DNA of 11,750 nt from an uncultured archaeon (lineage in GTDB: Archaea; Asgardarchaeota; Lokiarchaeia; Sigyniarchaeales; SOKP01). Below are positions 927-9,875 of the stretch, piece by piece. Within the stretch, counting starts at the first letter, position 1, and every line of letters begins with the position of its first letter. The notes under the pieces are model-generated. The model was not told the origin of the DNA. It saw only the letters and a program-made list of their open reading frames with translations, and ran no database searches. The DNA lies in the NCBI GenBank assembly GCA_964525635.1, contig CAZGJX010000117.1, positions 1-11,750 on the forward strand, given 5' to 3'. The translations under genes were made by a program, and so were the position numbers.

Positions 927-1535
927 ATGGATAATGTGTTTATATCGAATTTTAGCAATCTTAATAATCACCTCAATTTTATAAATATTAGTAGTAAAAA
1001 TATGTCATTATTTGAATGGAAACCACCAAGTTCATTTAGGAGTTATATCTTGGATGTGAACCTAGTAAAGGAATATGCTACAGATGATATATTTTTTCAT
1101 ATTTTTAAAGGGAATAGTAAAATCGTACATATAAAAAAAGGAGATCTGATATACACGATAGGGGCTAATAATGATATTCAATTTCAATTACTTGAAGCAA
1201 TCCTGGAATATATAGATGAAAAATTTAATGAAATGTATGATATTAAAGTTATTTTATCTTTTGAGAATGTATCTTCGAATATATTTACAAGATTTAATAT
1301 TGTTATAGATAGTTTATTAGAGCATTTTAAGAAATTAGATCTGGTAAAGATTATTAATGCTTATTGTCGGGTTTGTAAAAAAATACTTCCTATTCTAGTA
1401 AAAAAAAGTTTTATTGATAATGCAGAAGATTATCCTGTTCCTTTAGTTTATAGCCATAAAGGGCATGCTATTCTTATTTTTATAGATAAAAATTTTGATG
1501 TTAGAGGAGTAGAGCTTGTTAATACAACAGCTTAA
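927..1535 (+). CDS. Longin-like domain protein with C-terminal CxxC...HxxH putative zinc-binding beta domain
   Basis: Residue pattern fits the longin order beta-beta-alpha-beta-beta-beta-alpha-alpha: LNFINIS/SLFEW; helix ILDVNLVKEYA; IFFHIF-KIVHIK-LIYTIG; LLEAILEYIDEKFNEMY; IFTRFNIVIDSLLEHF. It is followed by CRVC...YPVPLVYSHKGHAILIFIDKNFDVRGVELV. The CDS is solid; the fold call is by eye. Confidence 0.7.
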   Translation: MDNVFISNFSNLNNHLNFINISSKNMSLFEWKPPSSFRSYILDVNLVKEYATDDIFFHIFKGNSKIVHIKKGDLIYTIGANNDIQFQLLEAILEYIDEKFNEMYDIKVILSFENVSSNIFTRFNIVIDSLLEHFKKLDLVKIINAYCRVCKKILPILVKKSFIDNAEDYPVPLVYSHKGHAILIFIDKNFDVRGVELVNTTA

Positions 1536-1648
1536 TTTTATTATTTTTTAAAATGATTGAAAATATCATTAATTATATAATTTTAATATATTTTCATTTT
1601 TATTTTTGAATAAGAATTATTATTAAAGTTCATTGCTATTTAAAATAT

Positions 1649-2617
1649 ATGGAAGAGAAAATGAACAGTGGAGAAGATAATTATTTTGAAGCTATTGTTA
1701 AAAAAACAAAAACAGGAATCACATTACCTAAAGAAATCAGGGAAGATTTATTTAAATCGAATATAGATGTTTATTTCAAGCTTATTGTTCCAAAGGAAAA
1801 AAATAAAATAATTCTTAATATTATTTCCAAAGAAGAAGCTGAGGGAATTTTAGATAGAAATTTAACGGTTGAAAAATCTGAGAAAACAAGGAAAAAAACC
1901 AATAAAAATAAAGATATTCCAGAACCTAAATGGGCTGAATATTTTGTTTATGATTATGAGAGCAGGAGTAAAGTACAGACTATTTTAGAATCTGCTTATT
2001 ATAAATTTGCAGAAATTCCAGTAGATTTTGATGATGCTATTGGAAGGGTTAAATATACTTTAATTTCTTTTTTATCTCCTACTAAAACCGAAAATGCAAA
2101 ATTATATTATTCTGTCATAAGATTTTTAATTGATATTATTCATAATTTTGGTCATTATAGGTTAATTGAATGGATTTATGATAAAGTAATTCCAAACATA
2201 GATAGTATATTTCTTTATGAACTGGCATTATTAGATTTAATCGAGATAAGTTATAAAATCAAACAAATTGATAATGTTGAAATGTTTGTAAATAAAGTTT
2301 TAGAGAGTATTGATAAATATAATAAATCAGAATGGTATAATATAATGAGTAGTCTTAATCAACTTGTAAAAAAAATTAAACAATTTGAAAGTATATCAGG
2401 TATTTCAAATATTGTAAAAGAAAAATTACTCCAATATGAAGGAGAAACTGAAGTTGATGACTATAAAATCCAAATAATTGAACTTTTAGAAACTTTAAAT
2501 TTTATAGAAGAAGGATATCAATTAGCTGAGGAATTAATAAAAAGTCTCCCTCCTGAAAGTATAAAATTACCTGAAATTAGGAAAATAAGAAATAGACTCA
2601 AAGAAAAACCTATTTAG
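1649..2617 (+). CDS. Hypothetical protein: N-terminal AbrB/MazE/SpoVT-like swapped-hairpin domain plus C-terminal alpha-helical (TPR/solenoid-like) region
   Basis: The N-terminus EAIVKKTKTGITLPKEIREDLF...VYFKLIV...KIILNII matches the AbrB 'G.ITLPKEIRE.L' signature. A Lys-rich linker is followed by amphipathic helix pairs ending LNFIEEGYQLAEELIKSL. Confidence 0.7.
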   Translation: MEEKMNSGEDNYFEAIVKKTKTGITLPKEIREDLFKSNIDVYFKLIVPKEKNKIILNIISKEEAEGILDRNLTVEKSEKTRKKTNKNKDIPEPKWAEYFVYDYESRSKVQTILESAYYKFAEIPVDFDDAIGRVKYTLISFLSPTKTENAKLYYSVIRFLIDIIHNFGHYRLIEWIYDKVIPNIDSIFLYELALLDLIEISYKIKQIDNVEMFVNKVLESIDKYNKSEWYNIMSSLNQLVKKIKQFESISGISNIVKEKLLQYEGETEVDDYKIQIIELLETLNFIEEGYQLAEELIKSLPPESIKLPEIRKIRNRLKEKPI

Positions 2618-8077: not shown

Positions 8078-8131
8078 ACTTTTTTGATATTATATTTAAA
8101 TCTTTATTTCACCAGTAGTGTGTTGTTTTTT

Positions 8132-9133
8132 TTGAATGAATTGTTAAATGAATTTAATATAAAATTAGTTGTTCTTGGAAATGGAGGAGTAGGAAAAACA
8201 TCTTTAATTAATTCTATTACTGGTACTGAAGTTTCAGAAAGATATATACCAACAATAGGCTCGAATATATTAAAGAAGGACTATCTTTTAGATGAACAAA
8301 ATGCTTTGATATCTATCAGCCTTTGGGAATTAGGAGGACAGAGGGCTTTTAATCCACTGAATCCTGTTTTTTTTACAAATGTAGACATTGCATTTATAGT
8401 ATTTGATTTATCTAAACCTGATGAAACTATAGTTGATATAAATAATGTGTATTTAAATAATCTGATGGAAAAATCTGGAGAAAGTATAATATTTATTATT
8501 GGAAATAAAATAGATCTTGATTTAAATGAAAATAAATTGAAAGAATTATTACAAAAAGAGAATTTGGATGATTATCCTATAGTTTGTGTATCCGCACTGA
8601 CGAACAAAAATATTGAAAATCTGATTGATTTTGCTATTTATAATTTTTTAAAAGAGAAAAAGGAAGAATTTAAAGAAAATGATATTGAAGATTTGAGTAA
8701 ACCATTTCTCGACAAAATAAATAAAACAGTAGATAATCTCAATAAAATTTTAATTAACTTAGATAAAATAAACTCTTTAAAATTTCAAAAAAAACCATCA
8801 TTGAAAGTAAAAAAGAAAAAAATTGATATTGAAGAAGATAGTACCGAGAGTAAATCTGCTTTCATTCAAGAAAATAAAGAGGACCTTGATTTAATAAAAA
8901 AATTAATAAAAAGTACGTTTAATCAGAATATTTTATCTGTGGAATATATGATTACAAATTTAAAAAAGACACCGATCCAGTTATTAGAAAAAAGTATAGA
9001 TAAAACCTTAAATGAATTAAGGATTTTAAAGGATGATTTCGAATTAAAGCTTAATTCTTTAATAAATTTTGATAATATCTCAATCAAAAAATCAGATAAT
9101 AAAGTAAAAGAGAATTTATTAAAAGGTGAATAA
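8132..9133 (+). CDS. Rab/Ras-like small GTPase with C-terminal polybasic linker and helical/coiled-coil extension
   Basis: G1 GNGGVGKTS, G2 YIPTIG, G3 WELGGQ (D->E), G4 NKID, G5 SAL. The start is uncertain (TTG 8084, GTG 8120, TTG 8132 or TTG 8141); a later start fits the upstream TATA box better. Confidence 0.9.
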   Translation: MNELLNEFNIKLVVLGNGGVGKTSLINSITGTEVSERYIPTIGSNILKKDYLLDEQNALISISLWELGGQRAFNPLNPVFFTNVDIAFIVFDLSKPDETIVDINNVYLNNLMEKSGESIIFIIGNKIDLDLNENKLKELLQKENLDDYPIVCVSALTNKNIENLIDFAIYNFLKEKKEEFKENDIEDLSKPFLDKINKTVDNLNKILINLDKINSLKFQKKPSLKVKKKKIDIEEDSTESKSAFIQENKEDLDLIKKLIKSTFNQNILSVEYMITNLKKTPIQLLEKSIDKTLNELRILKDDFELKLNSLINFDNISIKKSDNKVKENLLKGE

Positions 9134-9875
9134 AATAGCAAAAAAAGATATAGAATTTATTTCTAAAGATGAGTTTATAAAATCAGAAAAAGTTATCGAA
9201 AATATTCAAGATAAGATTAAGGAACAATTTAATATTTTTTCAGATCAAATTGATAATCTAAAGAAAAATAATATTAATTTAGAAAAAAAAATAGATAAGA
9301 TTCAAAATATTGATAACAACTTAAAAGAAGTAGATCATAAATATTCGGAATTAGGTAAGCTATTAGAAAAAAATAATCACAATATAGATATGATTAAAAA
9401 TGAAATTAAAGAGCAGAATAAGAGTTTTACAGAAAAAATAACATCAATAAATAATAAAATCTCATTACTGGAAAATATAATTAAAACTGATAAGGAACAA
9501 ACTGAAATTAAATTTAACAATCAAGAGGATATCATCTTAGATAAAATAAATGTTTATTATGATGAATTTTCAAAAAATAAATCTAAATGTGCATCAGATA
9601 TCGATGAGATAAAAAGTCAACAGGACGTTTTAAAAATATCTTATACAATTAATGAAAAAAAATTATTAGAAAAAGTAAAAGATATTATTTTGGATGAAAT
9701 TAAAAATTTATTAAAAGATAAAGAAAAAGAAGTTTTGATGGATTTATGGATTAAAGAATTAAAAAAAATTATTAATGATTTTAATAAATTAAAAAAATTG
9801 CAACCTAAAGAATTTATTCTCCAGATTGATGAAATATCAAGCACAATAGATATATTTAAGGGAAAATTAGAATAA
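9126..9875 (+). CDS. Long coiled-coil hypothetical protein, probably translationally coupled to the upstream GTPase
   Basis: GTG start at 9126 overlaps the upstream gene, whose TAA is at 9131-9133. The sequence is K/E/N/I/L-rich with heptad periodicity and only one Pro. No TM segment is evident. Confidence 0.8.
   Translation: MNKIAKKDIEFISKDEFIKSEKVIENIQDKIKEQFNIFSDQIDNLKKNNINLEKKIDKIQNIDNNLKEVDHKYSELGKLLEKNNHNIDMIKNEIKEQNKSFTEKITSINNKISLLENIIKTDKEQTEIKFNNQEDIILDKINVYYDEFSKNKSKCASDIDEIKSQQDVLKISYTINEKKLLEKVKDIILDEIKNLLKDKEKEVLMDLWIKELKKIINDFNKLKKLQPKEFILQIDEISSTIDIFKGKLE

Follow-up and report, generated by a model that had tools for sequence, protein, structure and literature searches.

A four-gene core around a longin-pseudo-GTPase in a Lokiarchaeia genome: a tentative regulatory scaffold module

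Longin domains and small GTPases lie close to HEAT and coiled-coil proteins on one archaeal contig, raising the question of whether they make up a single conserved unit, as their resemblance to eukaryotic trafficking parts might suggest. The window analyzed here is the whole contig C117 (CAZGJX010000117.1; 11.75 kb) of a 4.45-Mb genome (G000; 26.8% GC, Lokiarchaeia-type). It holds nine complete genes, named g1 to g5, the M32 peptidase gene (g6), g7, g8 and purD, in at least three transcription units as judged by gene geometry. A preliminary description proposed that five of them (g1, g3, g5, g7 and g8) encode a precursor of coat or tether systems. All the open reading frames (ORFs) it named are present, and so are its eukaryote-like parts (a pair each of longins and small GTPase domains, one HEAT protein and one coiled coil), but synteny across Asgard genomes splits the set: g2, g3, g4 and g5 are linked across families, while g1 and g7-g8 are linked only within the family. 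Two members of this deeper core, g2 and g4, had been omitted. The idea of a conserved module thus survives around the longin-GTPase g5 and the HEAT protein g3, as a g2-g3-g4-g5 set found in three arrangements. The core comprises the following features, with residues numbered along each protein.

g2, 1649–2617, plus strand: AbrB/MazE-like N-terminal domain (about residues 14–60), linker, and a helical repeat region of about 230 amino acids (aa)
g3, 2614–3633, minus strand: short HEAT-repeat domain (about residues 6–216) and E/K-rich charged helical tail (240–332)
g4, 3670–4632, minus strand: Asgard-wide, single-copy five-cysteine-cluster protein with two alpha/beta domains
intergenic region, 4633–4942, no strand: divergent, common to g4-g3 and g5
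g5, 4943–6373, plus strand: sigma-adaptin-like longin (1–121), pseudo-GTPase-like domain (122–276), TPR/MIT-like three-helix bundle (282–350), disordered linker and small helical domain (413–475)

The core consists of two linked units. All 17 genomes from three sister families, like all loci of the own family, have g3 directly 3′ of g4 and in the same orientation, with gaps of −35 to 71 nt, and g2 precedes g5 in tandem in 7 of the 12 sister-family genomes that hold both (gaps of −4 to 98 nt in the four measured, with a start/stop overlap in one). Moreover, g5 or the g2-g5 tandem abuts g4-g3 in 6 of these 12 genomes, in three arrangements; among the remaining six, one has the units 10 kb apart, two have them at contig ends (undecided) and three have them split. 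All four genes are contiguous in G047, G050 and G055, the last being a single-contig genome that matches the cultured Candidatus (Ca.) Lokiarchaeum ossiferum, where they occupy about 129.6–135.0 kb of the chromosome. The between-family background, a small sample from two sister-family genomes, is 22 of 162 clear orthologues (14%) in kept blocks of at least four genes. Since kin are not independent, all synteny counts given here are descriptive only. By comparison, g1 is unlinked in the sister family, where 1.15 Mb (G044) and 2.08 Mb (G055) separate it from g5 in two single-contig genomes, and g7 was found at E ≤ 1e-25 in 0 of 24 genomes outside the family. With the queries used, neither g2, g3 nor close g5 orthologues were found outside Lokiarchaeia, those of g2 being found only within its own order.

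The protein at the center of this core, g5, has an AlphaFold model (mean predicted local distance difference test score, pLDDT, 84) with a longin topology at residues 2–121, a GTPase fold at 122–276, a three-helix bundle, a disordered linker and a small C-terminal helical domain. The best PDB matches of the longin profile are AP-2 sigma (E = 5e-4) and the VAMP7 longin, and Arf is the best-scoring Pfam family for the GTPase domain, in agreement with the longin-Arf-like fusion initially described. The three-helix bundle gives MIT-type matches (calpain-7, katanin) that tie with TPR matches (E = 0.004–0.6), the C-terminal helical domain has no PDB match, and the match lists of fold searches with g5 are filled by the GTPase domain. 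This GTPase domain is strongly atypical: the G2 Thr and the G3 Gly are absent in 26 of 26 aligned orthologues, in which G3 is of the WDFQL/WDFI type, and according to this alignment the switch residues are lost order-wide. Both residues are kept in 48 of the 57 GTPases of the genome, and the five longin-GTPase fusions that it encodes besides g5 are canonical. G1 and G4 are intact in the own family, where g5 probably still binds guanine nucleotide; G4 is also degenerate in the sister family, and G1 too in one genus. As its motifs stand, g5 is predicted to be unable to switch like Ras or Arf. Its N terminus is the longin, without the N-terminal amphipathic helix that is a defining Arf feature (bioRxiv 10.1101/2024.02.28.582541). 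Separately, the g5 orthologues of one sister-family genus (L142:10475-12736 and L149:8861-11074) are without the P-loop GKT and have much longer linkers, totaling about 740–755 aa.

The second anchor of the core, g4, is far more widespread. Of 151 genomes of the Asgard phylum, 106 contain a single match to its profile, while several families give none (including 0 of 17 genomes in one). The g4 family is small and unfused, forming 122 clusters at 50% identity with no member longer than 356 aa, and its stand-alone proteins, about 300 aa long, carry the motif C-x2/3-C-x6-C-x5-C ... P-x-F/Y-C; the five conserved cysteines in the alignment are C36, C40, C47, C53 and C76. Searches of the PDB and the ESM Atlas with a model of g4 (pLDDT 83) gave no clear fold match, the Atlas feature search staying below 0.9. 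The best Z scores, 6–6.8 (small domains of pyridoxal phosphate enzymes, type III chaperones), are within the range of common arrangements, and weak TBP-like Foldseek rows reach E = 0.025. In view of this lack of a fold match, the function of g4 is borrowed from its context. Outside the own order, this context is a gene lying directly 3′ of g4 in 15 of 22 distant loci from 11 families, often with a stop/start overlap, and encoding a rod protein, mostly of 800–1700 aa, in which a TrmB winged helix (helix-turn-helix, HTH) at the N terminus is joined to apolipoprotein-like helical repeats; of seven rods scanned, five score above the cut-off for the TrmB domain. In all genomes examined of the own order, g3 and not the rod gene lies directly 3′ of g4. 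The g4 protein of the window is the orthologue of the rod's cysteine partner. The window genome holds three shorter rod paralogues (637–755 aa) on other contigs (C7:17253-19520, C61:11076-12989 and C74:6647-8905), which are candidate partners of g4 in trans. Upstream of another g4 orthologue, at L180:10807-14493, lies a ribonucleotide reductase gene with an intein (LAGLIDADG).

The two remaining core proteins are both predicted to carry helical repeats. In g2, the alignment of the N-terminal domain shows a motif consistent with an AbrB-like swapped hairpin, and five AbrB structures are among the top PDB matches (E = 0.3–0.5), MazE_antitoxin being weakly matched by 3 of 25 orthologues; E values are weak overall, at 0.011–0.5. 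The g3 protein had been described as HEAT plus coiled coil. The HEAT part holds (Pfam HEAT, E = 3e-5; HEAT_2 weak), spans about 210 aa and is closest in the PDB to alphaRep/HEAT_2-type structures. The coiled coil is unproven, because the tail, of which 54–69% is E/K, has no significant heptad signal (p = 0.24). Pfam Adaptin_N gives no match to g3, whereas two long HEAT proteins of the same genome, at C26:30201-30875 and C1:81715-82404 (ORFs of 991 and 1124 aa), exceed its cut-off and are better adaptin-trunk candidates than g3; this family also matches in a non-Asgard control. In one genus, g3 orthologues reach about 600–620 aa, nearly twice the usual length (L137:3370-5229 of G019; contig C443 of G008). 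The divergent arrangement of g4 and g5 is kept in 22 loci, with a spacing of 95–529 nt, and no convincing conserved motif was found in the intergenic region across them. An AT-rich 9-mer occurs in 11 of the 22, against a maximum of 8 in mononucleotide shuffles, and is probably TATA-like.

From these observations we tentatively favor a model in which g2-g5 form a pseudo-GTPase regulatory scaffold module with DNA-linked partners, and not a coat or tether precursor. The window would then be a mosaic whose old core is an order-specific module of four genes in two linked units, g4-g3 and g2/g5. Because it is predicted to be unable to switch like Ras or Arf, g5 would serve as a fixed platform on which partners dock through the longin face and the TPR/MIT-like bundle, and the HEAT domain of g3 and the C-terminal part of g2 would be short solenoid adaptors on this platform. 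Its outputs would lead toward DNA rather than a coat, through the AbrB-type domain of g2 and through g4, a putative metal-cluster protein elsewhere co-encoded with the TrmB-HTH rod. The rod would be the ancestral partner of g4, its place in the operon having been taken in the own order by g3, which would be co-transcribed with g4. A bolder version, which we consider doubtful, is that g2-g5 form one complex tying the longin/pseudo-GTPase platform and two solenoids to g4 and hence to filaments of the DNA-binding TrmB rod, a linker from DNA to the membrane or the cytoskeleton built of eukaryote-signature parts. Several findings weigh against the scaffold model. The two units are separate in some genomes, by 86 kb in G044 and 457 kb in G045; in G040 they lie on two contigs and have other flanks, and g2 stands alone in G042 and G046. 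The AbrB assignment of g2 is statistically weak (E = 0.01–0.5), g4 matches no fold, and g3 has no detectable homology to the rod (hhalign E = 0.57). Finally, purD is near g5 in three families, though not in G044, G050 and G055, and part of the linkage may therefore be inherited chromosome layout. This last point makes for a serious rival, which is best weighed against the behavior of the other genes of the window.

g1, 927–1535, plus strand: family-level neighbor; longin and CxxC...H-x2-H putative zinc domain
g6, 6444–7937, plus strand: M32 carboxypeptidase, a passenger (Pfam Peptidase_M32, E = 1e-167)
g7, 8132–9133, plus strand: family-level neighbor; Rab-like GTPase with intact G motifs and conserved helical tail
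g8, 9126–9875, plus strand: coiled-coil protein coupled to g7; N-terminal coil variable, C-terminal part conserved

The g1 protein, initially described as a longin-zinc fusion, is indeed captured by an iterated longin profile (E = 2e-14 to 7e-23), with Pfam Longin weak in 5 of 23 orthologues (best E = 0.003). The invariant residues of its C-terminal domain, C147, C150, H177, H180 and D187, point to a putative zinc domain, a type with 11 copies in the genome. The second GTPase, g7, is Rab-like as proposed (best PDB match Rab7, E = 7e-34) but not atypical: it keeps G1-G5 and the catalytic Gln, with a D→E change in G3 only in its own genus. Its start is most likely the TTG at 8132 and not position 8084, as the stretch 8084–8131 adds 16 hydrophobic residues and is interrupted by stops in close relatives. 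Non-prenylated Rab-like proteins are usual in Asgard archaea, and g7 is without a C-terminal Cys motif; neither such a motif nor a transmembrane helix was found in any of the window proteins examined. The coupled g8 has a true heptad coil at residues 20–125 (p = 0.0005), of about 105–120 aa and variable, and its ORF measures 113–327 aa across loci. It follows g7 in 16 of 16 fetched loci that show both, and a helical motif shared by the g7 and g8 tails is weak (hhalign probability 6%, E = 0.006). At the contig edges, a 77-aa ORF at 204–437 on the minus strand resembles the N terminus of an oligopeptide ABC permease, its stop lying about 200 bp from the edge, and is possibly broken or misassembled. 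The non-coding tail past purD (11437–11750), which has a short inverted-repeat-like stretch near 11480–11510, may be where an insertion sequence ends, and this would account for the break of the contig.

Most genomes of the family preserve the gene order g1-g2-g3-g4-g5. The g1 gene is near g3 in 26 genomes, apart in 4 (all of one genus) and of undecided placement in 3. Found in 29 of 36 genomes (E ≤ 1e-25), g7 lies together with g8 at most 13 kb from g5 in 14 and clearly apart from it in 7, mostly with different genes inserted. The M32 gene, in most family loci, and purD travel with the block. Two genomes of the family, G022 and G029 (99% and 92% complete), gave no g1-g5 orthologue with the queries used, reflecting either loss of the block or a gap in the assembly, and G022 keeps g7-g8. 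Such family-level synteny is ordinary, since in random regions 67% of co-oriented neighbor pairs stay together anyway and 38% of orthologues lie in kept blocks of at least four genes; g1, the M32 peptidase, g7-g8 and purD are neighbors kept in this ordinary way. The same background suggests the most serious alternative, that g4-g3, g2-g5 (or g5 alone), g1 and g7-g8 are unrelated small operons in an inherited region, shuffled by local inversions without selection for a common function. We regard this as quite possible while leaning away from it. The M32 and purD genes ride along, the pairs are split in G040, G044 and G045, and the density of such parts is not above chance (see below); GTPase genes of MK-D1 are, moreover, generally not in operons with longin or roadblock genes (PMC10933270). 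Set against this, the linkage of g5 to g4-g3 outlasts three rearrangements at about 28–30% identity, compared with the 14% four-gene-block background between families, and the four genes are without metabolic function and have near-matching ranges in the order.

The list of parts itself turned out to say little about the window. The genome holds about 61 longin-domain genes and 59–88 small-GTPase-type genes, and 33 of 88 GTPase-type genes have another small GTPase at most 9 kb away. The longin count comes from the iterated profile and may include some drift; this profile was used because Pfam Longin and Clat_adaptor_s matched nothing in the genome and nothing even in controls. No other locus of the genome combines two longins with two GTPases in 9 kb, but when labels are shuffled, at least two of each meet at some locus in 19% of cases (P ≈ 0.19). 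Longin/GTPase density is therefore no higher here than the genome background, and the parts list alone is no evidence of a module: where a genome encodes about 60 longins and 60–90 small GTPases, a set that looks like AP/COPI comes about easily. A large family of proteins of about 730 aa with a longin-like domain near residues 600–710 was also seen in the window genome, at least seven of them on contig C3 and others on C77, C89, C47 and more contigs.

The presence of purD near g5 in three families, together with the carboxypeptidase gene and the AbrB-like domain of g2, could also fit nutrient signaling of the Rag/GATOR kind, with g5 sensing the guanine nucleotide level and controlling transcription through g2, and Asgard longin-GTPase fusions have been described as Rag-like (PMC10933270; bioRxiv 10.1101/2020.10.19.343400). 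We find this rather unlikely: only 1 of 27 g5 orthologues matches Gtr1_RagA (E = 0.004), purD is not near g5 in the three genomes named above, and nucleotide sensing is not conserved, as the sister family has a degenerate G4. The initial proposal of a five-gene coat/tether precursor is not supported, because synteny splits the set, the density is at background, g3 is no adaptin trunk, and g5 has neither the amphipathic helix nor the switch residues of Arf. Its narrower form, in which g5 with g3 and/or g2 would be a primitive adaptor hemicomplex (solenoid, sigma-like longin and GTPase fold in cis) sorting membrane proteins, with g7-g8 as Rab and tether, is favored by the AP-2 sigma and Arf matches of g5, by its linkage to two solenoids and by the coupling of the Rab-like g7 to a true coiled coil in g8, but is improbable given that g3 is about one-third of an adaptin trunk and of HEAT_2/alphaRep type, that no mu-homology or appendage domain was detected (Pfam; g4 fold searches), that g1 and g7-g8 are unlinked beyond the family, and that the range of g2, g3 and g5, confined to Lokiarchaeia with these queries, argues against direct ancestry of eukaryotic coats.

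Conserved eukaryote-signature neighborhoods are rare in Asgard archaea: most Asgard signature genes lack conserved neighborhoods, so that the partners of their GTPases are hard to match (PMC10933270; bioRxiv 10.1101/2020.10.19.343400). The locus names candidate partners for one longin-GTPase and ties an order-wide switch-less GTPase to a single-copy, Asgard-wide protein, g4. A literature search (without subscription journals) found no description of this neighborhood or of g4; what is new is that core and passengers can be told apart, that the switch residues are lost throughout the order, that g4 is identified as the rod partner and that a cultured organism has the core. The scaffold idea is testable, because the genome matching Ca. 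L. ossiferum carries the four genes side by side.

Compared with known systems, g5 resembles the longin-GTPase fusions of the Rag/Arf-like class published for Asgard archaea (PMC10933270; bioRxiv 10.1101/2020.10.19.343400) in its N-terminal longin fold before a small GTPase fold, and differs from them in the missing G2 Thr and G3 DxxG Gly, the additional three-helix bundle and C-terminal helical domain, and the conserved neighborhood. The AP/COPI adaptor core shares with the locus a sigma-like longin, HEAT repeats and an Arf-scoring GTPase, but has an Adaptin_N trunk of more than 500 aa where g3 has about 210 aa of HEAT_2 type; in addition, the g5 longin is fused to its GTPase, which is without amphipathic helix and switch residues, and no mu or appendage Pfam match was found. 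Like Rab and coiled-coil tethers of the golgin/p115 type, the window has a Rab-like protein with intact G motifs, whereas g7, g8 and g3 have no prenylation Cys or transmembrane segment, the g8 coil is short and variable in length, and the g3 tail shows no heptad signal. With the SRalpha SRX longin/SRbeta, TRAPP and Mon1-Ccz1 platforms, the window has in common the pairing of a longin with a small GTPase fold and the presence of two longins; it departs from them in that the g1 and g5 longin genes are unlinked beyond the family (their products may still bind in trans), the g5 GTPase is degenerate, and no TRAPPC3-like or DENN gene is nearby. The Asgard pair of cysteine protein and TrmB rod is represented by its cysteine member, g4, here followed by the short HEAT protein g3, which is unrelated to the rod, with rod paralogues elsewhere. 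Finally, a conserved Asgard operon of LAMTOR1-like, Rab-like and DENN genes has been described (bioRxiv 10.1101/2020.10.19.343400). Although g2-g5 are made of other parts, occur together in one order only and are centered on a pseudo-GTPase, they share with that operon the character of a rare conserved eukaryote-signature neighborhood around a small GTPase.

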